From assembly GCA_001004905.1 (NCBI GenBank), contig LCRY01000002.1:378129-442128 (forward strand): DNA of 64,000 nt, in the 5' to 3' direction. The notes under the pieces are model-generated. The model did no database searches and was not told the origin of the DNA. It saw only the letters and a list, made by a program, of their open reading frames with translations. The first letter of the stretch is position 1, and every line of letters begins with the position of its first letter. Shown piece after piece: positions 5,226-63,708 of the stretch. This DNA comes from Parcubacteria group bacterium GW2011_GWA1_56_13. Its GTDB lineage: Bacteria; Patescibacteriota; Minisyncoccia; Phycocordibacterales; Phycocordibacteraceae. The translations under genes were made by a program, and so were the position numbers.

Positions 5226-5260
5226 TTTGCGGGCTTTCGCCGCAGGGGTATACTGGCTTC

Positions 5261-5947
5261 ATGAACCAGGTGCGGCCCGACCAGTCCCTCCAACAGTTCC
5301 AGTCCGGTGTCGCAGCTATGTACGGTCTGGCGGACGACCGGCACTACTCCATCTTCGACCTTCTGACCCAGCTGCAGCGCTTCACCATGCGCGTCCTCAA
5401 GGGCATCCGCAAGGGCGACGATGAGAAACTGCGCACCAACCTTCTCATATCCTGCACGTGGCTCATGGCTATCGCGAATCGTCTGCATATCAACGTCGAG
5501 GACCAGGTATGGGAACGCTTCCCCGCCCTTTGCTCATACTGCGGCCTTGCGCCCTGCAAGTGCAAAAAGATACACCCGGAAAAACGCGCGGAAATAAAAC
5601 ACGACCACTCACAGCGTCCCGCCAACATCAAGGGATTTCAAGAAATGTTCCGCTCCGTCTATCCGCCCGAAAGTCGCACCCTGCTTGATGCCGGCGTGCA
5701 CCTCGCCGAGGAGACGGGCGAGGTGAGCGAGGCCATCCACAACTTCCTCGGCCAGCATCTGCAAAAGCAATTCGATGAAATAGAAAAGGAGATAGCCGAT
5801 TACGTTTCCTGCCTTTTCGGCGTGGCGAATTCCGCTTCCATCGACATCGCTCCCGCGCTCCACGATATGTTCAAGGACGGCTGCCACGTGTGCCACCGCA
5901 CCCCGTGCACCTGCACATTTTCGGAGGTGACCGCGTTCCGATCGTAA
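5261..5947 (+). CDS. MazG-like nucleotide pyrophosphohydrolase domain protein with two Cys clusters
   Basis: The ORF track extends upstream into tsaD. ATG 5261 (MNQVRP) follows the tsaD stop. LAEETGEVSEAIHN (EExxE) MazG motif. CSYCGLAPCKCKK and CHVCHRTPCTC look like zinc-ribbon insertions. Confidence 0.5.
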   Translation: MNQVRPDQSLQQFQSGVAAMYGLADDRHYSIFDLLTQLQRFTMRVLKGIRKGDDEKLRTNLLISCTWLMAIANRLHINVEDQVWERFPALCSYCGLAPCKCKKIHPEKRAEIKHDHSQRPANIKGFQEMFRSVYPPESRTLLDAGVHLAEETGEVSEAIHNFLGQHLQKQFDEIEKEIADYVSCLFGVANSASIDIAPALHDMFKDGCHVCHRTPCTCTFSEVTAFRS

Positions 5948-5998: not shown

Positions 5999-8209
5999 AT
6001 GCCCGAAAAATTCCTGAAACCATACGACCCCGCGGCGACGGAGTCGCGCGTCTATGCGGAGTGGGAAAAAAGCGGGCTCTTTAATCCCGACGAGTGCGTC
6101 AAACAGGGCGTCACAACGGCCGATGCCCCTCCCTACTCCATCGTGCTTCCGCCGCCGAACGTCACCGGGCGATTGCATATGGGTCACGCGCTCATGCTTG
6201 CCGTCGAGGACGCGTTCGTGCGGTACAGGCGCATGCGCGGCTTCCGCACACTCTGGGTACCCGGCACCGACCACGCAGCCATCGCGACGCAATCGGTCGT
6301 TGAGAAACAGCTTAAGAAGGACACCGGAAAGAACCGCCACGACCTCGGACGCGAGGGCTTGTTGAAGCACATCGAAGCGTTCGCGGCCGAGAGTCATGAC
6401 ACCATCGTCGGACAGCTCAAGACGATGGGTGCTTCGCTCGATTGGTCGCGCGAAGCGTTCACGCTTGATGAGGTGCGCAGCCGCGCGGTGCGCAACGTGT
6501 TCAAGCAGATGTATGATGCCGGCCTCATTTACCGGGGGCTTCGCATCGTCAACTGGGACCCAAAAGGCCAGACCACTATTTCCGACGACGAGATCGTGTA
6601 CGAAGAACGCCCCGCGAAGCTCTATACGTTCCGCTACAGCAAGGACTTCCCCATTCCGATCGCAACGACACGCCCTGAAACGAAGGTGGGCGACGTGGCG
6701 GTCGCCGTCCACCCGGATGACGCGCGATACGCCGGATTCGTTGGAAAAGAATACGACGCTCTTTTCTGCGACGTGCCCATCCATATAAAGGTGGTGGCGG
6801 ATGCCGCGGTTGACCCGGCGTTTGGTACGGGCGCCGTCGGCGTAACGCCGGCGCACAGCCAGACCGACTGGGACATCGCTGACCGGCACCTCCTTTCGCA
6901 CGAAACTATCGTCATAAACGAGTACGCGAAGATGATGGTACCCGGCCGCCTCGAAGGAAAGAAGACCTCCGAGGCGCGCGAGATGGTCGTTGCGTGGCTT
7001 ACGGACGAAGAACTGCTTGAGAAAGAAGAGCCCATCACGCAAAGCATAGCGACGGCGGAACGCACCGGCGGCATTATCGAGCCCCTGCCGAAACTACAAT
7101 GGTTCATCGCCGTGGACACGAAAATCCCGGGCCGCGGAAAAACGCTCAAGGAGCTCATGCTGGAACCCGTACGTTCCGGAGCGATCAAGATCGTTCCCGA
7201 ATATTTCGACAAAACCTATTTCCACTGGATAGAGAACCTGCGCGATTGGTGCATCAGCCGGCAGATCTGGTATGGGCACCGGATACCCGTCTGGTACCGT
7301 TCGCCTGACGCTCACGGCAAGCAAGGCGAGGAAATAATGGTCGGTATCGAGCCGAAGGAGGCCGGGTGGTCCCAGGACGAGGATACGCTTGATACGTGGT
7401 TCTCTTCGGGTTTGTGGACATTCTCGACCTTGGGATGGCCGGAGGACACTGCGGACATTAAGACATATCACCCCACCGACCTGCTCGAAACCGGTTACGA
7501 CATCCTCTTTTTCTGGGTCGCGCGCATGATACTCATGACCGAATTCGTACTGAACACCGTTCCGTTCAAAACCGTGTACCTGCACGGCCTCGTTCGCGAT
7601 GCACAGGGGCGCAAAATGTCGAAATCGCTCGGCAACAGCCTCGACCCCTTGGACATATCGGCGAAGTTCGGTGCAGATGCGGCACGGATGGCGCTCGTCG
7701 TCGGCAATACTCCGGGAACCGATCTGCGCATGAGCGAAGACAAGATAAAGGGCTACAAACACTTCGCGAACAAGCTTTGGAACATCGCGCGGTTCATTTT
7801 AGAAAATACTCCCAATGCTGACACGAATACGCCATTGACCGCCGAGGATAAAGAGGTTTTTTCCAAACTCGATGCGCTCGCCCGTGAAGTGACGGAGGAT
7901 ATGGAGAACTATCGCATCTATCTCGCCGCCGAAAAGCTCTATCACTATGCGTGGCACGAGCTCGCGGACAAGATATTGGAAGAGTCGAAACCCATATTCG
8001 CAGGAAGCGACGAAGCCGCGCGCGCTTCGCGCGCGCGGCTCCTCCTCGCGCTCCTCGATCGCACCCTGCGGCTCCTGCACCCATTCATGCCGTTCATCAC
8101 CGAGGAAATTTATCAGTCCATGCCGACGAAAGATTCCGAATTCCTGATGGTCGCCAAGTGGCCTATTCAATCTGAAAAATTGAAACTCTCTAAGTCAATT
8201 TCCAGATAA
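5999..8209 (+). CDS. valS: valine--tRNA ligase
   Basis: PPPNVTGRLHMGHA (HIGH) and KMSKSLGN (KMSKS) class I signatures of ValRS. 736 aa. The last ~14 codons lie in AT-rich DNA. Confidence 0.8.
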   Translation: MPEKFLKPYDPAATESRVYAEWEKSGLFNPDECVKQGVTTADAPPYSIVLPPPNVTGRLHMGHALMLAVEDAFVRYRRMRGFRTLWVPGTDHAAIATQSVVEKQLKKDTGKNRHDLGREGLLKHIEAFAAESHDTIVGQLKTMGASLDWSREAFTLDEVRSRAVRNVFKQMYDAGLIYRGLRIVNWDPKGQTTISDDEIVYEERPAKLYTFRYSKDFPIPIATTRPETKVGDVAVAVHPDDARYAGFVGKEYDALFCDVPIHIKVVADAAVDPAFGTGAVGVTPAHSQTDWDIADRHLLSHETIVINEYAKMMVPGRLEGKKTSEAREMVVAWLTDEELLEKEEPITQSIATAERTGGIIEPLPKLQWFIAVDTKIPGRGKTLKELMLEPVRSGAIKIVPEYFDKTYFHWIENLRDWCISRQIWYGHRIPVWYRSPDAHGKQGEEIMVGIEPKEAGWSQDEDTLDTWFSSGLWTFSTLGWPEDTADIKTYHPTDLLETGYDILFFWVARMILMTEFVLNTVPFKTVYLHGLVRDAQGRKMSKSLGNSLDPLDISAKFGADAARMALVVGNTPGTDLRMSEDKIKGYKHFANKLWNIARFILENTPNADTNTPLTAEDKEVFSKLDALAREVTEDMENYRIYLAAEKLYHYAWHELADKILEESKPIFAGSDEAARASRARLLLALLDRTLRLLHPFMPFITEEIYQSMPTKDSEFLMVAKWPIQSEKLKLSKSISR

Positions 8210-8904
8210 TCGTAATACTTCTTGTTTTCAAGATCATAACTACCGTTTTCAAATTTATTTTTCGGATTCGAGAGTTTGAGAGGGTTTTTCTGGAACAGGC
8301 AGACTTCACTCTTTAGTGGCTTGCCAGGATAAAAATGGAGAACCCATTTTTCTGTACCAGGAACAAACCGATTATTGAAGTTGAGTTTGCCTTTTGCGGC
8401 GAGATAAATGGTGGTGATTTCCTCGAGAATAAACATTATTTCTTTTTCTCCCAACCCATGTGGAGCATTTTTACAATCAAATTCAACACATGAACGAAAT
8501 TGAGCATCAGTTTTATACAAATCGAGCACTTTTGTGAATGTTGAAGGAAAGATCTCGGAATTATCTATAATGACTTGCCCAAAAGTATAGAATGAAAAAG
8601 CTTTTTTGATCCAAATATTGTCTTTCAAAACAATATTCATAAATCCATTTTTGTGCGCGACCATCAGTTCTTTATACCGATCACGGAGCATATTGGCCGG
8701 CTCATCGGAATGGAAATATAGATAATCGGAATACCAGGTCACCATTCCGATACCTTCAGTCCTATTAATCTTGGTGTCTATCCATTTTAGATCTTCAAAA
8801 CATTTTTCTGGGCTTTGGCGATTGCCTATACGGCTCATAGAAATGCCCCAAAATAGTATCCCCTCCTCGTTAGGTAATCGGCTTATGTCATGAAATCCAT
8901 GCAT
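8167..8904 (-). CDS. hypothetical protein encoded by an AT-rich (~38% GC) foreign segment
   Basis: 245-aa ORF convergent with valS and overlapping its 3' end. GC drops sharply between 8.16 and 8.90 kb. No recognisable motif. Confidence 0.5.
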   Translation of the reverse strand: MHGFHDISRLPNEEGILFWGISMSRIGNRQSPEKCFEDLKWIDTKINRTEGIGMVTWYSDYLYFHSDEPANMLRDRYKELMVAHKNGFMNIVLKDNIWIKKAFSFYTFGQVIIDNSEIFPSTFTKVLDLYKTDAQFRSCVEFDCKNAPHGLGEKEIMFILEEITTIYLAAKGKLNFNNRFVPGTEKWVLHFYPGKPLKSEVCLFQKNPLKLSNPKNKFENGSYDLENKKYYDYLEIDLESFNFSD

Positions 8905-9647
8905 TGCCCCTAGTATATACCTGTTACAATAAAGCCGTGGCTCCCATCACGCTCGGCTATGCGTTCATCGGCGGGCTCTTGCCGCCCCTCATTTGGCTCT
9001 ATTTTCTCCTCAAAGAAGACGCCAGTCACCCGGAGCCGCGTGTGCTCATCGCACTTACGTTCATCGGCGGGATGGCGGCCGTGCCGCTCGCACTGCCGCT
9101 TGAACAGTACGCAAAAGCCCATCTCCTCGGTGACGTTTCGATCTTCACCGCCTGGGCGCTCATCGAAGAGACGCTTAAATACGGCGCCGCGGCGACCCTT
9201 ATCCTCTGGCGGAGCGCCGTGGACGAAGCGCCCGATTACGTCATCTATATGATCACGGCCGCGCTCGGCTTCGCATCGGCTGAAAACATGCTTTTTCTTA
9301 TCAATCCTCTTTTAGATGGCGGCTTCGCCACCGGATTCTTGACCAATAATATACGGTTCCTCGGCTCGACGCTGCTCCACGTGGTCGCTTCTGCGGCGAT
9401 CGGCTTCGCGCTCGCGTTTTCGACCGCAGACCGTCCGGCTGGGCGCGCCTTTGCCGCGGCGTTGGGACTTATCCTCGCTATCGTATTGCATACCGCCTTT
9501 AACATGCTTATTATTAACGAAGGTGCCTCAACCGCACTCGCCGCGTTTTTCTTCGTTTGGATAGCCGCCGTCATTTTCTTTGCGGTGTTTGAAGTGCTAA
9601 AATATTTTCAGTATCGTAGCCCTAACAACAATCCTCCCTTACCATGA
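8904..9647 (+). CDS. PrsW-family intramembrane glutamic protease
   Basis: Polytopic membrane protein with IEETLKYG (EExxK), FASAEN and LHTAFN motifs of the PrsW/YpdC family. TTG 8904 or GTG 8937 start. Confidence 0.65.
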   Translation: MPLVYTCYNKAVAPITLGYAFIGGLLPPLIWLYFLLKEDASHPEPRVLIALTFIGGMAAVPLALPLEQYAKAHLLGDVSIFTAWALIEETLKYGAAATLILWRSAVDEAPDYVIYMITAALGFASAENMLFLINPLLDGGFATGFLTNNIRFLGSTLLHVVASAAIGFALAFSTADRPAGRAFAAALGLILAIVLHTAFNMLIINEGASTALAAFFFVWIAAVIFFAVFEVLKYFQYRSPNNNPPLP

Positions 9648-28653: not shown

Positions 28654-31377
28654 CTAGCCGTTCAAATTGATTCCGTTGACCCTCTTCACCGAGTCGCTAG
28701 CGAGGCCGTTCAGTGTTTTCACCGAGGTTTCGTCGAGGCCGTTAAACGTGCTGATGTCGGAAGTCGGTATCGAAGGGCTTACCGACGCGGATTCTGAACT
28801 CGAAGGCGAAAATGAGGCGGAAGGGGACAAGCTTGGGGAGAGCGACGCGGAGGGCGAGCTTGACGCACTCGGGGATGGCGATGGAGAAATGGATGAGCTT
28901 GGCGAGAGAGAGGCCGATGGCGACTGGCTCGGGGATTCGGAAGCGGAGGGAGAGACAGACGGGCTCGGGGAGGCCGATGGCGACTGGCTCGGGGATTCAG
29001 AGGCAGAGGGAGAGAGCGAAGCGGAGGGAGACAGTGATGGCGAAACCGATGATGAGGGAGAGAGCGAGGCGGAAGGCGAAAGAGAGGGCGAAGCGGAACT
29101 CGAGGGAGAGATGGATGCGCTCGGAGATATCGAGGGACTTTCAGATGCGGAAGGCGAAAGCGAGGCGGATGGGCTAAGCGACGGCGAAACTGACGAGCTC
29201 GGTGAAAGCGACGCGCTCGGGGAAAGCGACGGACTTTCTGACGCCGAAGGCGAAAGTGAGGGAGAGACAGACGGGCTCGGGGAGGCCGAGGGCGACTGGC
29301 TCGGGGATTCAGAACTTGAAGGCGAGAGCGAAGCTGAGGGGGAAAGGCTCGGAGATTCGGAACTTGAGGGCGATAACGAAGCGGAGGGAGAGAGCGAAGG
29401 AGAAGCCGAGGCGGAGGGAGAGATTGAGGCGGAGGGAGAGATTGAGGAGGATTCAGAGGCAGAGGGAGAGAGAGACGCCGACGGCGAGAGTGAAGGACTT
29501 TCAGACGTGGATGGCGAGAGCGAGGCGGAGGGAGAGATTGAGGGCGATTCGGATGCCGAAGGCGACTGGCTCGGGGATTCAGAAGCGGAGGGAGAGAGCG
29601 ATGCCGATGGTGAGAGCGACGGGGAGATGGATGAGCTTGGCGAGAGTGAAGCCGAGGGAGAGAACGATGGCGACTCAGACGCTGAGGGCGAGAGTGAAGC
29701 TGAGGGCGAGAGCGACGGAGAAACGGAAGAACTCGGCGAGAGCGAGGCGCTGGGAGAGAGGGACGGCGATTCAGAAGTTGAGGGTGAGAGCGAGGCGGAA
29801 GGTGAGAATGACGGGGACTCGGATGCGGATGGAGAGAGTGAGGCGGATGGGCTGAGCGATGGCGATTCAGAAGTTGAGGGTGAGAGCGAGGCTGACGGAG
29901 ATTGACTCGGCGATTCGGAGGCGGATGGGCTCAGGGATGCAGACGGAGAGAGCGAGGGGGAAACAGAGGAACTTGGCGAGAGCGAGGATGACGGAGAAAG
30001 CGAGGGCGATTCGGATGCCGAGGGTGAAAGAGATGCAGAGGGAGAGAGCGAGGGTGATTCGGAGGCGGATGGGCTCAACGATGCCGAGGGTGACAGAGAG
30101 GGAGAAGCCGATGAGCTTGGCGAGAGCGAGGCGCTCGGAGATAACGATGGTGATTCAGAAGCCGAGGGCGACAACGACGCAGACGGGCTTAAGGACGGTG
30201 AAACCGACGAACTTGGCGAGAGCGAGGCTGACGGAGATTGACTCGGCGATTCGGAGGCGGATGGGCTCAGGGATGCAGACGGAGAGAGCGAAGGTGATTC
30301 GGAAGCGGATGGGCTCAACGATGCCGAGGGTGACAGAGAGGGAGAAGCCGATGAGCTTGGTGAGAGCGAGGATGAAGGAGAGAGGGATGGAGATATCGAA
30401 GAGGAAGGCGACAATGAAGCTGATGGGGAGAAAGACGGACTTTCAGAAGTCGATGGGGATAATGATGCTGAGGGAGAGAGCGAAGCGGATGGGGAAAGGG
30501 AGGGAGAAACGGAAGAGCTTTGCGCCGCTTGCGATGGCGAAACGGAAGCCGAAGGCGAAAGCGATGGGGATTCCGATGTCGAGGGGCTAAGCGAAGCTGA
30601 TGGGGAGAAGGACGGACTTTCAGAAGTCGATGGGGATAATGATGCTGAGGGAGAGAGTGAGGGTGATTCGGATGTAGACGGGCTAAGCGATGCTGAGGGA
30701 GAGAGTGAGGGTGATTCGGATGTAGACGGGCTAAGCGATGCAGACGGAGAGAGCGAGGGTGATTCGGATGACGAGGGAGAGAGAGACGGTGACTCCGATG
30801 GAGACTCTGAGGGCGATTGAGAGGAAGACGGCGAGAGGCTCGGTGATTCGGAAGGTGATTCGGAAGGTGATTCGGAAGGGCTTACCGAGGAAGACGGCGT
30901 CGGCGGCGTGAAGTCAACCGTGCACGTAACGAAATCGATGGAAAAAGTGACCGCGTCGGTATCGTTCCCCCGGATGCTCCGCAACCGGGCCCTGACGTTA
31001 TTGGCGGTTCTCAGGTCAGCGAGCGTTACGCCCGAGGTGACTTGATGTTCCAGGAGCGTGTCTACTGTCTTCTCCGTCGCGTCGCTCTGTTCCGAACCAA
31101 CTGCCGAGGTGCCGATGAACACCTGTATCGCCTGCGTGGCGATCGACATGTTGGTACTGACCTTGTATTGGAGGGAAACCGTAACCGAATTGATCGTTGA
31201 GCTGTCGGGGATGAGCGCGGTGTCAAACGCGGGGAATCCGAAATATGCCGAGATTTCGGCGTTTTTGCCGGGTGCGGCGGTCGCGTACTGAGTATTGTCG
31301 CCATCGTAGGCCAGCTGGGGGTTCGTGTATCCCGTCGTGATGGCTGTATGGGCATTGGCGTTCTGTGTGACAGCCAT
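28654..31377 (-). CDS. 907-aa Ser/Pro tandem-repeat protein (globular N-terminal ~165 aa, ~700 aa of SPSxSxSPS repeats, NGL-repeat C-terminus)
   Basis: Single uninterrupted minus-strand ORF through 2.7 kb. Plus-strand frames are broken by stops. Co-directional with the flanking genes. Confidence 0.6.
28800..30900. repeat. degenerate ~18/48-bp tandem coding repeats (Ser/Pro-rich region)
   Basis: Repeated ggcgagagcgaggcggagggagag... units encoding ([16 protein letters not shown])n on the minus strand. Confidence 0.8.
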
Positions 31378-34458: not shown

Positions 34459-35112
34459 CTAATAATTTAACCCTACCCTGACGTCGCCGATATGCATAAC
34501 CCTCGGCGCATCGGTGCGCTTGCCCCAGTATGCGCATTTGGCGTTCGCATCTTTGAAGAGCATGCGTCCATACTGGCGTTCCGAGTACGGGACATCGGGC
34601 CAAGGATAATCGTAGACAAGAGATTTGTTATACACGCAGGGATTGCAGGAAAAATTATTCCGGTGTTCCACCCAATAGTGAACGCCGTCGGTTTTGTCTT
34701 CATATCGCTCTGGATGCGAAGCTATTATTCCTCCCTTTTTCCGCTCCCGCGAACCGATTGGCTGCCGGAGAAGCACTATTTCTTTGAGATGGGGGTTATT
34801 CCCCATGACCTTGATCATGTCAGCGACAGCCACGTCTTCCATAAAAAGAAAATCGTCTTCCAGGTGGAAAACCCACTCATTGGCATCCTCTTTGAGCTTC
34901 TGCCAGGCGGAGATCATGGCTTTTGCGAATCCGACCCGATCGGTGGCCGCGATCTCGTACTTGAATCGCTCAAGCCACTTTCGGTACGTATTATCCCCCG
35001 AATCATCATGGATCAATACCCGAGAAAAGGAGGCGTGAAGTTTCCCGAGCGTGGAGAGAGTCCGCTCGAGATATTCCCCGCGTCCATTGGTCATGATGAG
35101 AAGCGTCACCAT
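34459..35112 (-). CDS. hypothetical protein (possible nucleotide-sugar transferase-like), ~50% GC
   Basis: 217-aa ORF in the operon, HLEDDFLF acidic motif. No clear family. Confidence 0.4.
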   Translation of the reverse strand: MVTLLIMTNGRGEYLERTLSTLGKLHASFSRVLIHDDSGDNTYRKWLERFKYEIAATDRVGFAKAMISAWQKLKEDANEWVFHLEDDFLFMEDVAVADMIKVMGNNPHLKEIVLLRQPIGSRERKKGGIIASHPERYEDKTDGVHYWVEHRNNFSCNPCVYNKSLVYDYPWPDVPYSERQYGRMLFKDANAKCAYWGKRTDAPRVMHIGDVRVGLNY

Positions 35113-35612
35113 AAGGTGTCAAGAGGAGTCGTGTTACTGAGGACGGTCGTCCATGGTATATAGCGGTCGAAATCCTTTCGATACTTGAATTCGGGAAATG
35201 CGATTTGGTACATATTTTTCCGAACGACGTTTGAATCGTGGATGACAATGTAGTCGGCGCTATTCTTAAGATGAACTGCGGTTTTGCCTCTCGTGTGCCC
35301 GCCATGGTCAATAAGGATGATGCTGTAATGCCCTGTATTTGGTATTGAGAGATAGTCATCAATAAGATGAACTGCGTGGTTTTCTGACCTATATTCCTCG
35401 GCTAACTTGATGAAGTTCTTGTCGCTCTCGTATGTGACAAGGGAACGTTTTGTCTCGGCGCATAACCAGTGAAGAAGGGGCGTGCTGTAGATCCCGGATC
35501 CCACTTCCATGATCGGTCCCGTAGTCATGGCGGCCAGTTTCAGCAACACAGGCATGTGGGTCGACCATCCTTGTTCGATATTTATGGAGAGTGATTTATC
35601 CGAATGGCGCAT
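35106..35612 (-). CDS. putative class I SAM-dependent methyltransferase (TylF/MycF-like fold), lower GC
   Basis: IMEVGSGIYSTPLL glycine-rich motif. 7-nt overlap with the upstream gene. Confidence 0.4.
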   Translation of the reverse strand: MRHSDKSLSINIEQGWSTHMPVLLKLAAMTTGPIMEVGSGIYSTPLLHWLCAETKRSLVTYESDKNFIKLAEEYRSENHAVHLIDDYLSIPNTGHYSIILIDHGGHTRGKTAVHLKNSADYIVIHDSNVVRKNMYQIAFPEFKYRKDFDRYIPWTTVLSNTTPLDTLW

Positions 35613-35615
35613 AAT

Positions 35616-36302
35616 TTAATAGCCGTGCCTCGTAAACAGTTCGATGAGGTGCGCGGGGAGGAGCGGCTTCACGTCCTTATAGAGCTCTTTCATGCGGGGA
35701 TGGAAATGAAATACCTTGACGGGCTTTTCCGCTTTGGCAAACATCAGCTCGTTATGCCGCATGCGGCCTAAGTTATACGTATTGTTCAGTTTTATATACC
35801 GGTCATTTATATTGTCCACGTTCCTCGATGTTAAACGATACAAGGCTATTTCTTCGTTGACGCGTTTGTCGTTCATGGTCCGCCGAATGAGTTCGAACAG
35901 GTCTTTCGCCCGAGGCGAGAAAAAGAAACTGCCGGTATTCCACATTTCATTGAATCCGTAATCGGTAAAAGCGGCATCCTTATCCCCCAATACGTCCGCC
36001 GGAAATGCACTCACTTGGTAGGCATCGAAATCATGGAACCAACACACACCATCAAGTGCGCCAGTATCCAATAGATGACAAATGACATTTATCTTGCTAG
36101 CCCGTTTTCGATGTGTACAAAATAATTCATCGGGTACCACGATTGCATTAACCCCTTCATAAGAATATGGAAAATTGGTTACCAGGAGGATATCTTCCCT
36201 GTTCCATATCCGTAAAGAATTATCAATTTGCACTTTAACCAGGCCCGCATAATCTTTGGTAAATTCTTTTGACGGATGTATATATGCCATCAAGTTTTTC
36301 AT
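35616..36302 (-). CDS. hypothetical protein, ~44% GC
   Basis: ATG 36302 overlaps the upstream stop (ATGA). No recognisable motif. Confidence 0.4.
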   Translation of the reverse strand: MKNLMAYIHPSKEFTKDYAGLVKVQIDNSLRIWNREDILLVTNFPYSYEGVNAIVVPDELFCTHRKRASKINVICHLLDTGALDGVCWFHDFDAYQVSAFPADVLGDKDAAFTDYGFNEMWNTGSFFFSPRAKDLFELIRRTMNDKRVNEEIALYRLTSRNVDNINDRYIKLNNTYNLGRMRHNELMFAKAEKPVKVFHFHPRMKELYKDVKPLLPAHLIELFTRHGY

Positions 36303-36967
36303 AGCGAAAGCGAGGCTCGCAGCAAGGTCAAGTCGCCCCAAAATGGAAGCGACTCGCGCGGCGGATGCCGGCGCGAGTGGGAAGAGTAGCGGCTCACGTT
36401 GTTCAGCGTTTTAAAGGTGATAACGGGCTCATCGGACGTCCACACGAATTTTGGGTCCGTCCCGAGATGATACGCCCTGTTACTCGGCTTGTCCTCCTCG
36501 GTATACCAGCGCATTTCCTTCCCGAAGACCTGTCCGATGTATAAGCGCCAAAAGTCCTTGCGAATCACTTGCGCGCCGTCCGAGTATCGCTTGAAGAAAG
36601 CCAAATCCGGCTCTGACGCCGTTTTCGGTCGGATATAGGCAAGCCATACGTTGCCGTATCGATAATAATCCGCGCCGTCGGGCCGGAATGCGAAATAGGC
36701 GGGCGGGTACAGCACATCGGCTTCGGCTGTGATGACGTAGTCGGTTTTGACCGCATCGAGCCCGATTTGGATTTGGCGAAATTCGTTCCCGTAGCATGGG
36801 TGATGCCGCCCGACGCAAATGTTCTCTCCAAAGCCGGGGGCCGGCTCCTGTGTCACGGAGACGAGCGGCAGGTTGCCCTTGTGTTTGAGCAGATTCTCGC
36901 GGATTTTCGCCTCGAATGCGGGTTCTTCTGCATTCGCAGAGTAGTAGAGGACGGTAAGATTGTTCAT
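36299..36967 (-). CDS. hypothetical protein
   Basis: 222-aa ORF in the co-directional operon. Confidence 0.4.
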   Translation of the reverse strand: MNNLTVLYYSANAEEPAFEAKIRENLLKHKGNLPLVSVTQEPAPGFGENICVGRHHPCYGNEFRQIQIGLDAVKTDYVITAEADVLYPPAYFAFRPDGADYYRYGNVWLAYIRPKTASEPDLAFFKRYSDGAQVIRKDFWRLYIGQVFGKEMRWYTEEDKPSNRAYHLGTDPKFVWTSDEPVITFKTLNNVSRYSSHSRRHPPRESLPFWGDLTLLRASLSL

Positions 36968-60268: not shown

Positions 60269-61897
60269 TTATGTCGGGAGCTCCACGATAAAGGTCGAAC
60301 CCTTCCCTTCTCCTTCGCTTTCGGCGCGGATGGTGCCGCCGTGGGCTTCGACTATCTGTTTGGCGATGTAGAGGCCGTAGCCGGTCGAGTGCGCGTTTAT
60401 TCTCTGCGAATCCCTTCCGTGGCCGCCTTCGGTGAAGAGCCGTTTCTTGTCTTCCTCGGTGATGCCGACGCCCGTGTCTTTGACGGAGAAAATGACTTTT
60501 CCGCTCTCCTTCTTCAGGAAGATATCCACCGAACCGGAGGGGGTGTAATTGACGGCGTTGTCGATGAGGTTGCGCAATACGTGCTCGCTGAGGTTGTCTT
60601 TATCGGCGCTGACCATGTAGGGCGCGCCGGCGGGGTCAGTCATGATATTGAGAGAAAGATGCTTCGCTTCGGCCGCGGGCTTCGCCCTCTGCACAGCGAC
60701 CGCGACCAGCGTCGCGAGGTCAACCGGCTCCTTGGTGTAGGTGACCGTCCCCTTCTTCAGGTTCGACGCCTTGAGGATATTCGACACCGAATCGACGCCC
60801 ACGCGCGATTCAGCAAGCGCGTGGTCCACGAACGGCTTCATGCCGTCCGGCGGCGCGCCGAAGTCGCCCTGCGAAATGGCGGCGAAGGCGCTCATGTCCT
60901 TGGTCAAAAATCCTTTCACCTCATGCCCGATGAAGTGGATGAGCGTTTCCTGCCGCTCATTGGTCTGGGCGAGTTCTCCGGCGAGTTTCTCAATATGTTC
61001 GCGCTGCGCGATTTCTCGTTTCACACTTCGAACAAGGAAAACCCCACTTATCAAGAAGCCAACCAGGGTCACTACGGACAAAATAGTACCGGCCGTCGTC
61101 GTGCTATAGAAGAGTCGTGCGGCAATAAGCACCGCGATGCTCGCGACAAGTGCCTGGGTGGCAAACAATTTAACATTGAACGTTTTAAACCTAACGACAG
61201 TGTACGTCAGGAATGCGATAAACACCGGCATACCGAAGAGTCCGGCCTGCGCTGTATCCCAATCCTCCGTCAAGCTCCCAACAATATTCCCAGAAGAAAA
61301 CGCGATGAGGAATATGATGAGGCCGGTCGTGAAGAGTATGATCTCCTTTTTCCGCGCTGGTTGGCGGCTAATGCCCCAGAAACTCGTAAAGAGAATGAGA
61401 AAACTCAACAGTATCTCGATAGCATATGTGGACAGGAAATTCAGTGCGGGTGTCTCAGAAATAACACAGGTAGAAAGGTCAACACCAGTAAACAAATAGG
61501 ATGTCGGGAGCAGTATCGTTATCGGGAGAAGCAAAATAACGAGACCGACCTTGGAAAGAAAATCTAGGTCTTTTTTCGCGATAAACACGTAAGCGAAATA
61601 GAGGGCCGACACGTAGACGAACACTTCCGATAAGACCTGCATGCTCCAAAGGAACAAATCTATGTCCGGTCGATTGAGTGCCCAGAGGGGCAAATCAATG
61701 AGCGTCCATGTGGTGAAAAAAAAGATCGTTACAAGGAATAGCTTAACGGCAAGCGATTCGCGAGCTCGCGGGATGAGGATAAGGGCGAAAACAACCGCCG
61801 CCAATACCGCGGTAAGGTGAGAATAGTACAGAAGTGGCGGAACGTTGCTTGAAAAAATGAAATATTGAGCTGGTTCCCACGGACAGAGTAGTTCCAT
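60269..61897 (-). CDS. sensor histidine kinase, tandem paralog of 58484..60262
   Basis: Same architecture. The C-terminal ~200 codons are ~90% identical at DNA level to the neighbour. Confidence 0.7.
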   Translation of the reverse strand: MELLCPWEPAQYFIFSSNVPPLLYYSHLTAVLAAVVFALILIPRARESLAVKLFLVTIFFFTTWTLIDLPLWALNRPDIDLFLWSMQVLSEVFVYVSALYFAYVFIAKKDLDFLSKVGLVILLLPITILLPTSYLFTGVDLSTCVISETPALNFLSTYAIEILLSFLILFTSFWGISRQPARKKEIILFTTGLIIFLIAFSSGNIVGSLTEDWDTAQAGLFGMPVFIAFLTYTVVRFKTFNVKLFATQALVASIAVLIAARLFYSTTTAGTILSVVTLVGFLISGVFLVRSVKREIAQREHIEKLAGELAQTNERQETLIHFIGHEVKGFLTKDMSAFAAISQGDFGAPPDGMKPFVDHALAESRVGVDSVSNILKASNLKKGTVTYTKEPVDLATLVAVAVQRAKPAAEAKHLSLNIMTDPAGAPYMVSADKDNLSEHVLRNLIDNAVNYTPSGSVDIFLKKESGKVIFSVKDTGVGITEEDKKRLFTEGGHGRDSQRINAHSTGYGLYIAKQIVEAHGGTIRAESEGEGKGSTFIVELPT

Positions 61898-61906
61898 ATC
61901 TTTTTT

Positions 61907-61945
61907 ATAATAACACCAGAATATGCCCGCATGGGGTGTTATTAT
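61907..61945. promoter_or_regulatory. 11-bp inverted repeat ataataacacc-N17-ggtgttattat in a divergent intergenic region
   Basis: Seen directly between the HK start (61897, -) and the DHS-like gene (62017, +). Confidence 0.3.
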
Positions 61946-62016
61946 AGGGCTTGTGTATTATCGTGATTTTAGGATTCTTTTCTGTCACAAAAGTCTAACC
62001 TACGCATCTTCTATAT

Positions 62017-63117
62017 ATGGAAAAAAGTAAACTGGACAAGCTTTCGCCCGGATTAAAAAAGCTCATCGTACAGAGCAATGCCACAGCTACAGGCATCTTA
62101 AGTGATGATATTAAAAAGAGCTCCGTGCCGATTAGCAGATTTGCCGAAAGGGTACTGCTCCATTGCAACGGGGGCTCCACTATGCACGCAGCATTGTGGT
62201 TAAAAAATCATTTACATAATGGCGGGAAATTGGTAGTTACCTTGGCGGGTGCCTTGAGCTCTTTTGAGGTCGGCGTGCTGCTTGCTGAACTTATCCGGAA
62301 AAATAAGGTACATCTGATATCCGCAACCGCAGCTAACCACGAAGAGTCCTATTACCGCTATGTTGCTCATTCACACTATGCCAACATCCCGCGCTATACC
62401 GAACTAACCCCTGAACAAGAATCTGAATTGCGAGATGCCGGTTTCCGCAGGATTACTGATACATTCCTGCCCGAAGAGGAGAGCGTACGCATTATGGAAC
62501 CCCACTTAGTCAAGATGTGGCAAGATGCACACAAAAAAAATGAGCGGTACTTCCCGCATGAATATTTCCGAAGGCTATTTCAGGAAAAGATGGTAAAACC
62601 GGACCCTCATACCAACCCCAGTGACAGTTGGGTCTACGCAGCATTTGAAAAAGACATCCCGATTATTATTCCTGGGTTTGAGGATTCTACGATGGGGAAT
62701 ATATTTGCAAGCTATACATACAACGGCCTGCACAAGAATGAGAAAGATATTGTAATAGACGGTAACGTTATGAAGAGCGGTGTAGAATATTTTCATCTCA
62801 TGTACGACTGGTACATGAAAGAAAGTAAAAAAACTCCTATCGCTTTCCTACAATTGGGTGGAGGTATTGCCGCGGATTTCCCCATTTGTGTGGTACCTTC
62901 TCTGAAACACGATTTTAAACTCCACGGTACTGTCAGAGATTGGGCAGGTTTTATTGAGATCGGTTCTTCTCCGATGTCATACGGCTCCTATTCCGGTGCC
63001 GGAGGTAAAGAAAAAATAACCTGGGATAAACTCTCACCAGAAAGCTATTACCAAATTATCCAAAGCGATGTAACAGTGGCTTTCCCGTGGATCGCAGCGG
63101 TGCTTCTTGATTTCTAA
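62017..63117 (+). CDS. deoxyhypusine-synthase-like protein (polyamine aminobutyl transferase family), ~42% GC
   Basis: 366 aa with DHS-like Rossmann segments (LVVTLAGALSS, HLISATAANHEESYY, LGGGIAADF). Assignment from family resemblance only. Confidence 0.45.
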   Translation: MEKSKLDKLSPGLKKLIVQSNATATGILSDDIKKSSVPISRFAERVLLHCNGGSTMHAALWLKNHLHNGGKLVVTLAGALSSFEVGVLLAELIRKNKVHLISATAANHEESYYRYVAHSHYANIPRYTELTPEQESELRDAGFRRITDTFLPEEESVRIMEPHLVKMWQDAHKKNERYFPHEYFRRLFQEKMVKPDPHTNPSDSWVYAAFEKDIPIIIPGFEDSTMGNIFASYTYNGLHKNEKDIVIDGNVMKSGVEYFHLMYDWYMKESKKTPIAFLQLGGGIAADFPICVVPSLKHDFKLHGTVRDWAGFIEIGSSPMSYGSYSGAGGKEKITWDKLSPESYYQIIQSDVTVAFPWIAAVLLDF

Positions 63118-63133
63118 CTAAATTAATCTTCTT

Positions 63134-63310
63134 CTAGAGCGTCTCTTCGTCGACTGGCGCCTCGTCCGTCGGCATCTCATCAGCCGATGCCTCAAACGTC
63201 TCCTCCTTGTATACTTCAAAATCCTTCCGTACAACAGCACGGTCGTAGGTGAGATAGAGCGATGTTGCAATAGCTACAGCGAGGAGAATGAACAAGATTT
63301 TTGTTTTCAT
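63134..63310 (-). CDS. 58-aa signal-peptide protein with acidic tail
   Basis: MKTKILFILLAVAIATSLYLTY... Not in the ORF track (<60 aa). Start abuts the speH stop. Confidence 0.35.
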   Translation of the reverse strand: MKTKILFILLAVAIATSLYLTYDRAVVRKDFEVYKEETFEASADEMPTDEAPVDEETL

Positions 63311-63708
63311 GGAACAAGATTTTTTGTCGGGTAATGCGTACCCCGTTTGATAAAGTGTTGTTCTATGTCCTGGAGTTTGAATTTTTTCTTGAAATAATTT
63401 GTAACGAACTCCACATCAATGCCATTTTGGCACGTGTATACGTCAGCTGACAGAAATCGGCGTTTCGGAAATGTATGAATGCTTATGTGGCTTTCGGCAA
63501 TCATAACGAAACCGCTCCATCCGCCCGGGTCCTTGATATGATTGTCGGGGGCAGATATGATAAGCGGCTTCATGAGTGGGCGCATGTGGAGTGAATCACA
63601 CATCTCTATAAGCGCCGAGTACACAGCCTCCTCGTCATTCAGACGTTCCGGGTCTCCGCCGTAACCGTCCACGGTAACGTGCTCTCCAAAGTGAGCTGCC
63701 ATAGGCAT
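63307..63708 (-). CDS. speH: S-adenosylmethionine decarboxylase proenzyme (class 1b, SpeH)
   Basis: AESHISIHTFP self-processing motif. Confidence 0.75.
   Translation of the reverse strand: MPMAAHFGEHVTVDGYGGDPERLNDEEAVYSALIEMCDSLHMRPLMKPLIISAPDNHIKDPGGWSGFVMIAESHISIHTFPKRRFLSADVYTCQNGIDVEFVTNYFKKKFKLQDIEQHFIKRGTHYPTKNLVP

Follow-up and report, generated by a model that had tools for sequence, protein, structure and literature searches.

Cyclodipeptide synthases (CDPSs) share a catalytic set consisting of Ser37, Tyr178, Glu182 and Tyr202 (AlbC numbering), and their XYP subfamily is defined by the residues X40-Y202-P203 (PMC5935735, PMC7613923, PMC12945691). XYP enzymes are reported to keep their activity when Tyr is exchanged for Phe at the position equivalent to 178, showing that the ring and not the hydroxyl group matters there (PMC7613923, the study of ParcuCDPS). 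In ParcuCDPS, an Asp residue after the second strand polarises the catalytic Ser (PMC7613923). This enzyme is number 90 among the characterised CDPSs, and tailoring enzymes are known to be linked or fused to CDPSs as well (PMC5816076). Here we describe a gene for a predicted divergent relative of these enzymes on a 64,000-nucleotide (nt) stretch of contig LCRY01000002.1 from Parcubacteria group bacterium GW2011_GWA1_56_13 (hereafter termed the window). The gene encodes 245 amino acids (aa), is AT-rich and overlaps the 3' end of valS, the gene for valyl-tRNA synthetase (ValRS). We read the locus as a single acquired gene for a divergent CDPS-like enzyme next to a valS that was not truncated, and assign this reading a probability of about 0.72.

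A foreign single-gene segment between valS and prsW

The locus comprises the following features:

5999..8164, plus strand: native part of valS (ValRS residues 1-722, ending ...LMVAKWP); NCBIfam valS equivalog, 901.8 bits; relatives match residues 1 to ~722
8165..8209, plus strand: new valS tail IQSEKLKLSKSISR plus TAA, antisense of the 3' end of the foreign gene; 43-nt convergent overlap
8165..8919, no strand assigned: foreign AT-rich segment at its maximal extent (minimal extent 8167-8904, the reading frame), delimited by DNA homology, GC content and junctions against 18 relatives
8167..8904, minus strand: 245-aa gene, predicted divergent CDPS-like (XYP-type) enzyme; open reading frame (ORF), homologues, AlphaFold2 model, CDPS fold matches and Rgry-CDPS profile match
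8916..8927, plus strand: native 'cctgttacaata' -10-like box ahead of prsW, intact to the right of the insertion; the box precedes prsW in 18 relatives, with an identical 16-mer in L011
8937..9647, plus strand: prsW, PrsW-family intramembrane protease with its true start at GTG 8937; Pfam PF13367, E 6e-22

The composition break at the AT-rich block was the sharpest of the whole window, with edges at ~8165 and 8905-8919. GC content in 200-nt windows was 0.56-0.60 before 8200, 0.335-0.41 across 8100-8899 and 0.595 from 8900; the lowest 300-nt value of the 64 kb (0.333) fell within the block, and values elsewhere were at least 0.39. Read in the sequence, the left edge is ...gccaagtggcct/attcaatctg... 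and the right edge ...aaatccatgcat/tgcccctagtatata/cctgttacaata..., with slashes at the boundaries. The block contains a single intact ORF of 738 nt (8167-8904, minus strand, 245 aa). A first-pass annotation of this DNA had claimed both the GC drop and a 245-aa protein opposite valS, and the 200-nt and 300-nt GC windows and the ORF confirmed them. Furthermore, GC content at third codon positions (GC3) was 0.37 for the ORF compared to 0.64-0.76 for tsaD, the MazG-like gene, valS, prsW and hsp20, demonstrating that the break lies in codon usage too, beyond amino-acid content.

We compared the locus with those of 80 ValRS relatives (one genome per GTDB species scanned; 63-83% identical; Kaiserbacteria and other Paceibacteria). 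By tblastn of the loci, 0/80 encoded the 245-aa protein, and tsaD and prsW were found in 76 loci and hsp20 in 71, in the order tsaD-valS-prsW-hsp20. In most of the 80, valS was directly followed by prsW; this arrangement is the empty site that the first-pass annotation had proposed to look for. Its view of the block as foreign was borne out by the absence from 80/80 relatives and a GC3 of 0.37 against ~0.7 in the host. Past the valS stop of the 18 nearest relatives there follow, within ~3-100 nt, a conserved -10-like box (cctg[ct]tacaata or gcggtagaata) and the prsW start codon, GTG or ATG. The prsW start given above was supported by the relatives, whose alignments begin at residues 7-9 of the longer ORF, and by gene callers, which predict 236 aa from 8937 on identical contigs. 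DNA similarity to the valS of the relatives ended at 8163 and restarted at 8920 on their prsW side, while copies of the foreign gene from elsewhere were similar over 8230-8900. From the host homology limits it follows that the foreign segment measures 738-755 bp and is essentially ORF-only: it consists of the ORF, at most 2 nt past its stop and at most 15 nt ahead of its start.

The valS gene itself (5999-8209, plus strand, 736 aa) runs convergently into the 245-aa ORF with an overlap of 43 nt, and its last 14 codons (8165-8209) are provided by the AT-rich DNA, as had been noticed at first pass. ValRS aligned to positions 2-703 of 860 of NCBIfam PRK05729; the usual C-terminal region is absent, which agrees with the earlier remark that the coiled-coil extension is missing. 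The suggestion that the insertion had truncated and re-terminated valS held in its second part only: the tail is re-terminated by foreign DNA, but the enzyme was not truncated. In 75/75 relatives, i.e. all those whose valS 3' end falls inside the retrieved DNA, ValRS terminated 0-11 residues past the conserved ...LMVAKWP (residues 716-722 here) when the reading frame was extended. No longer C-terminus occurred among these 75, a result close to the one that the first-pass annotation had itself named as speaking against its view, namely the same length in native DNA. The KWP-plus-0-11 terminus was kept across hosts of 34% to 65% GC, and the 0-11 residues found at the tail position in relatives were unrelated to the tail in the window. 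Judged by these alignments, a short ValRS of ~720-736 aa without coiled coil is a native trait of the clade and not a truncation. The insertion swapped just the short, naturally variable tail and left the rest of ValRS intact at clade-normal length. Taken jointly, the insertion and the native length of ValRS appear to us nearly certain. What looked like the truncation of an essential aminoacyl-tRNA synthetase (aaRS) by foreign DNA thus proves harmless for the genome.

Exact-protein look-ups of the adjacent Hsp20 retrieved 14 contigs of the same species. The insert was present in 10/10 contigs read, from at least eight samples, and was 100% identical over 8101-8960, indicating that the insertion is fixed in the sampled material; a same-species empty site, sought through the same look-ups, was not found among the 10 contigs read. 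The identical DNA (contigs L095-L104) is annotated as a gene of 89 aa (JGI, ENA and one NCBI record), 192 aa (GCA_003531405.1) or 245 aa (Logan). In the NCBI record, P0004, a 'hypothetical protein' of 192 aa from Candidatus Kaiserbacteria, residues 1-53 are missing. Pseudogenisation, as suggested by the differing gene lengths, was rejected, since these are gene-caller artefacts on identical DNA. In this GC-rich genome the AT-rich gene is called too short, and therefore the deposited proteins lack the region of the catalytic Ser and the gene remains 'hypothetical'.

Direct or inverted repeats bracketing the junctions were not found, and target-site duplications and terminal repeats were likewise sought without result. 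A mobile element (insertion sequence, miniature inverted-repeat transposable element, integron cassette or homing endonuclease gene) was rejected: terminal inverted repeats, a target-site duplication and an attC-like hairpin were all missing, the sole ORF is the CDPS-like gene, and copies elsewhere sit at unrelated sites. In other genomes these copies lie after SpoU, TatD, a DinB-type polymerase, pyruvate kinase and others, and thus the gene does not home to valS. Searches of 50,697 phage records and 72,556 plasmid records (tblastn) and a scan of IMG/VR revealed no relatives of the 245-aa protein. Overall, this is an ordinary case of horizontal transfer, in which one gene was gained in a short intergenic spacer. 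In one Kaiserbacteria species, we propose, a single gene that probably encodes a very divergent XYP-type CDPS homologue was acquired horizontally and inserted between valS and prsW, which are separated by a very short spacer. Its left junction lies right after the conserved Trp-Pro codons of valS, and the native tail of 0-11 codons with its stop was replaced by 14 antisense codons of the new gene. On the minus strand, the ATG of the 245-aa gene is preceded by TATATACTAGGGGCA-ATG, with a TATACT box and an AGGGG Shine-Dalgarno-like motif, which as expression signals are suggestive only. A terminator-like hairpin between the convergent valS and the 245-aa gene was not found.

The valS-prsW spacer of relatives displayed a peculiarity of its own. 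In several of them (L011:7136-7215 and L013:7142-7222, also L020, L022, L029 and L050) a hairpin occupies the exact insertion site. Its stem is a perfect 23-29 bp duplex with a sequence wholly different in each genome, the 5' arm being formed by the last valS codons, and a conserved apex of ~27 nt, AGACTTGGCCTAGCGGCCCGGAGCGCT, closes the stem (folding free energy about -65 kcal/mol, z -8.7). The hairpin matched no Rfam family and was absent from the window; it resembles either an element that duplicates its own flank in inverted orientation or a terminator specific to the clade.

Relation of the 245-aa protein to cyclodipeptide synthases

We identified 119 homologues of the 245-aa protein at 40-80% identity, almost all of them 245-255 aa long; the family comprises 232 clusters at 50% identity (E ≤ 0.001). 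Among 51 aligned members, 20 residues were invariant. The proportion of non-synonymous differences (pN) to the nearest homologue was 0.13 compared to a saturated synonymous proportion (pS) of 0.82, and over six homologues pN ranged from 0.13 to 0.39 with pS at ~0.8-0.9. Since pN lies far below saturated pS, the family is under strong purifying selection. The window copy departs from the consensus at 3/63 highly conserved sites (S8, C202, Y230), which is within the range of the family. At residue 202 (8299-8301, minus strand) it carries Cys, where Tyr is found in 48/51 close and 51/62 wider relatives (SEVYLFQ to SEVCLFQ).

Scans of the 245-aa protein against Pfam, NCBIfam, PADLOC and PHROGs gave nothing usable. 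The earlier statement that it belongs to no recognisable family is therefore true for these collections, but it fails once structure and a broader profile are taken into account, which point to CDPSs. An AlphaFold2 model built on the family alignment reached a pLDDT of 93.1 and a pTM of 0.91, and the first 44 Foldseek matches in the PDB were all CDPSs (best E 6e-7), followed by the tyrosyl- and tryptophanyl-tRNA synthetases TyrRS and TrpRS. The protein thus shows the single-domain Rossmann-type fold, nearest to the catalytic domains of class Ic aaRSs, that is expected of a CDPS. A wide profile of 62 members, with identities down to 18%, matched the sequence of Rgry-CDPS (PDB 5MLP) both in hmmsearch (E 4.2e-7) and in hhalign (probability 96.9%, E 1.9e-10, 180 columns). 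From fold and profiles together, homology of the 245-aa protein to CDPSs seems very probable. In terms of sequence, the family sits past the edge of current CDPS definitions and is reached through Rgry-like XYP enzymes. In the collection of papers searched, neither this family in the candidate phyla radiation (CPR) nor 'CDPS-like' enzymes turned up in any relevant report.

The codons assigned to the catalytic positions are:

8839..8841, minus strand: Ser22, predicted acyl-enzyme nucleophile (position of AlbC Ser37); GISMSR compared to GISMNQ (Rgry-CDPS) and GISAGN (AlbC)
8419..8433, minus strand: Phe158-Ile-Leu-Glu161-Glu162, counterpart of the CDPS helix motif Tyr178-x-x-x-Glu182 with Phe for Tyr; MFILEE compared to NYFLEE (Rgry-CDPS) and NYVLAE (AlbC)
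8326..8331, minus strand: Tyr192-Pro193, counterpart of Tyr202-Pro203 of the XYP signature; FYPGK compared to TYPGK (Rgry-CDPS)

In the hhalign alignment of the family with Rgry-CDPS, the motifs paired as GISMSRIGNRQS/GISMNQ--THQS, MFILEE/NYFLEE and FYPGK/TYPGK. By alignment, Ser22 is assigned to the catalytic Ser that closes the first strand, Glu162 to the Glu on the helix facing this Ser (AlbC Glu182), and Tyr192 to the cyclisation Tyr (AlbC Tyr202), to which it aligned in both Rgry-CDPS and AlbC. Retention among the 62 members of the wide alignment was 60/62 for S22, 60/62 for F158, 61/62 for E162, 61/62 for Y192 and 53/62 for P193. The sole positions kept in at least 90% of this alignment were S22, Q30, Y58, L62, Y63, H84, F158, E161, E162, L189 and Y192, and four of these 11 are the four CDPS catalytic positions. 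The XYP signature was recovered as well: Tyr192-Pro193-Gly194 is invariant in the close family, and the Pro is the one kept in 53/62 of the wide family. AlbC Asn40 aligned either to Arg/Lys25 or to a gap with Asn28.

In analogy to characterised CDPSs, Ser22 would take over the aminoacyl group from a first aminoacyl-tRNA. Glu162, acting as base and anchor, would then deprotonate the amine for its attack on a second aminoacyl-tRNA, and Tyr192 might relay a proton in the cyclisation that would release a 2,5-diketopiperazine. Following this analogy, we consider it fairly probable that the family synthesises cyclodipeptides. As a guide to the product, pocket positions are unreliable at 11-18% identity.

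Genomic partners, alternative explanations and further features

A metagenome scan yielded 80 further loci of the family, which apparently belongs mostly to CPR/Patescibacteria, as judged by source names and genomic contexts. In nearly all metagenome loci the CDPS-like gene lay 5-15 GC points under its flanks; extremes were the window gene (0.37 vs 0.57 in the flanks) and L130 (0.36 vs 0.52-0.56). The low GC content of the family genes results from a composition rich in F, Y, N, K and I, and probably also from repeated transfer. GNAT or SET genes, or SET fusions, adjoined the gene in about 30/85 loci. Clustering of adjacent ORFs revealed the following partners:

GNAT acetyltransferase type A (PF00583): 13 loci
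GNAT-like protein type B, directly downstream (weak Pfam GNAT match in L004/L091): 8 loci
SET-domain protein, directly downstream (PF00856): 8 loci
SET fusion to the CDPS-like domain (PF00856): at least 5 proteins (P0020, P0030, P0031, P0147, P0152)
Class I methyltransferase (Pfam): 3 loci
TrmB-type regulator (Pfam): 4 loci

One locus (L118) combined several of these in the order regulator, CDPS-like gene, SET, GNAT. SET, GNAT, methyltransferase and regulator partners were not found in the window, where the gene stands alone. SET and GNAT partners are unusual for a CDPS, and they are probably tailoring enzymes. In two loci (L108 and L119) the CDPS-like gene lay directly downstream of metG, which encodes methionyl-tRNA synthetase (MetRS), and was followed by a SET gene; MetRS was nearby in L004. 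An aaRS gene occurred within 5 kb in 2/7 loci examined in detail, where a rough estimate for chance is ~1.4. A functional link to a neighbouring aaRS was considered and found unsupported; only MetRS recurs, a weak association that, taken together with the ValRS of the window, does not exceed what chance and, probably, shared ancestry of the loci would give.

Several observations weigh against the reading of an acquired CDPS-like gene. A Pfam scan of the 51 aligned members at E ≤ 10 returned chance matches only, none of them to CDPSs, and Pfam PF16715 and NCBIfam TIGR04539 gave 0 matches for 51 close and 6 remote members at E ≤ 10. As controls, PF16715 scored AlbC with 232.9 bits and a fragment of Rgry-CDPS with 20.6 bits (cut-off 27), and TIGR04539 scored the latter with 33 bits (cut-off 45). 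A profile of close relatives had no match among PDB sequences at E ≤ 10 and succeeded once remote members were added. Against four NYH-type CDPSs, hhalign found the correct register with probabilities of 0.8-6.7%, which is too low as stand-alone evidence. The Tyr four residues before the Glu (AlbC Tyr178), which CDPSs are described as conserving well, is replaced by Phe in 60/62 members and is never Tyr, and the loop from the Glu helix to the Tyr-Pro strand is ~13 residues longer than in Rgry-CDPS. The residue equivalences rest on profile alignments, not on superposed coordinates. As regards acquisition and host expression, no donor or transfer vehicle was identified, the nearest DNA relative being 75.6% identical, and a promoter or terminator consensus for the 245-aa gene was not found. 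Three of the four catalytic residues, the fold and the profile homology speak for membership of the CDPS superfamily; the defining Tyr178 is absent, and the curated models do not recognise the family.

These departures from canonical CDPSs could also be explained by an enzyme with a CDPS- or class Ic aaRS-like fold that would use aminoacyl-tRNA but move one aminoacyl group to the amine of a small molecule or to a protein, with SET and GNAT acting on the same amine-bearing substrate. Both partners modify amino groups and would be unusual as CDPS tailoring enzymes, the Phe in place of Tyr178 runs throughout the family, and the curated CDPS models do not cover it. On the other hand, the cyclisation and XYP pair Tyr192-Pro193 is kept (61/62 and 53/62), as is the Glu base of the second aminoacyl transfer (61/62), the nearest relatives in sequence and structure are all proven cyclodipeptide synthases, and the window copy has no partner gene; we thus regard a different acceptor as unlikely. 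The first-pass annotation had favoured yet another role and pointed to toxin, immunity or abortive-infection genes, for which a position convergent on an essential gene is typical. A single short foreign gene that converges on and overlaps valS, a sporadic distribution among genomes and the toxicity that an aminoacyl-tRNA-consuming enzyme could in principle have are all compatible with this idea. However, PADLOC returned 0 families at E ≤ 10 and PHROGs a chance-level match only (E 0.1), the window contains no cognate small partner ORF, and phage, plasmid and IMG/VR relatives are missing. The recurrent neighbours elsewhere (GNAT, SET, methyltransferase) are not antitoxin-like, and the location at valS is not conserved, copies elsewhere following SpoU, TatD, a DinB-type polymerase or pyruvate kinase. 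Together with the CDPS fold and catalytic residues, this makes a defence or toxin function very improbable.

The missing promoter and terminator consensus raises a further alternative, namely that the gene is inert, unexpressed foreign DNA heading for decay whose lasting effect would be confined to the changed ValRS tail. In favour of this, codon usage deviates strongly from that of the host, the tailoring partners seen elsewhere are missing, and Cys replaces Tyr202, a residue with 94% conservation. Yet the ORF has remained open over 738 nt of AT-rich DNA, where stops arise easily, all catalytic residues and 60/63 highly conserved residues are kept, and the sequence does not vary among 10 contigs collected at several sites in different years. 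The AGGGG Shine-Dalgarno-like motif and the TATACT box just ahead of the ATG likewise speak for a gene that the host may express, so that decay seems improbable to us. We therefore prefer the acquisition of a gene for a divergent CDPS-like enzyme over these alternatives. Going beyond it, we put forward as a tentative conjecture, with low confidence, that the family might be an unrecognised, CPR-centred branch of tRNA-dependent peptide-bond-forming enzymes whose product carries a free amine that is methylated or acetylated by SET or GNAT, or else that it aminoacylates a protein or metabolite; the window copy would then represent the core enzyme on its own, taken up by a streamlined episymbiont. 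If true, this would provide the first SET domain acting as a tailoring enzyme on a small molecule (diketopiperazine or aminoacyl). The locus in any case draws attention to a CDPS-related family that is overlooked by current CDPS models and genome-mining rules and that combines a fixed Tyr-to-Phe exchange with recurrent SET/GNAT linkage or fusion. The secondary metabolism of CPR/Patescibacteria is poorly known, and a characterised member would widen the sequence space for tRNA-dependent cyclodipeptide pathways and could reveal new tailoring chemistry.

Elsewhere in the window, a gene for a MazG-like nucleotide pyrophosphohydrolase (229 aa, 5258-5947, plus strand; PF03819, E 1.4e-5) lies between tsaD and valS. 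It occurred in 1/80 relatives (L011, 75% identity), and elsewhere tsaD abuts valS. It represents a second accessory gene flanking valS, yet has a host-like GC content (GC3 0.76). A 907-aa protein encoded at 28654-31377 (minus strand), probably located at the surface or in the cell envelope, consists mostly of Ser/Pro-rich repeats (SPSxSxSPS...); at 29-31 kb it gives rise to an AT skew and to an extreme GC skew of +0.44 to +0.50. A milder low-GC patch (0.39-0.40) at 61700-63700 contains ORFs of 366 aa (62017-63117, plus strand) and 133 aa (63307-63708, minus strand), which we take to resemble deoxyhypusine/homospermidine synthase and pyruvoyl-type S-adenosylmethionine decarboxylase; the pair could be an acquired polyamine module. 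Finally, several ORFs of no evident identity cover a stretch of lower GC content (0.39-0.43) at 35100-36350 (minus strand), perhaps a cluster of accessory genes for cell-surface sugars.

Comparison with characterised enzymes

The NYH-subfamily enzymes AlbC, Rv2275 and YvmC carry His after the cyclisation Tyr, where the family has Pro, and their hhalign probabilities stayed under 7%; PF16715, which gives AlbC 233 bits, leaves the family unscored. Compared to the class Ic aaRSs TyrRS and TrpRS, the family has neither a HIGH motif (GISMSR stands in its place) nor an anticodon-binding domain. Its K-P-L-K-S stretch after Tyr-Pro-Gly recalls KMSKS by position only, and the lysines are kept in 21/62 and 24/62 members. 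ParcuCDPS resembles the window gene in its CPR/Patescibacteria source and its XYP type. Asp60, which is invariant in the close family and present in 31/62 of the wider family, lies in the same topological place as the Asp of ParcuCDPS and may be its equivalent. Unlike the family, however, ParcuCDPS is a canonical CDPS that retains its catalytic Tyr167, and the family profile did not match it at E ≤ 10. Nbra-CDPS (Nocardia brasiliensis, PDB 5MLQ, XYP) shares 11% identity and was likewise unmatched by the family profile on sequence.

The closest counterpart is Rgry-CDPS from Rickettsiella grylli, an XYP-subfamily enzyme of demonstrated activity that makes cyclo(Phe-Phe)/cyclo(Phe-Leu) and the only solved protein that the family profile matched on sequence. 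Like the members of the family, it is a single-domain protein of ~250 aa, although the identity is only about 18%. The family differs from it by the Phe at the Tyr178-equivalent position and by its own invariant residues Gln30, Tyr58, Tyr63 and His84. Both share GISM..QS with the catalytic Ser, [YF]-[FI]-L-E-E with the Glu base, and YPGK with the Tyr-Pro pair.

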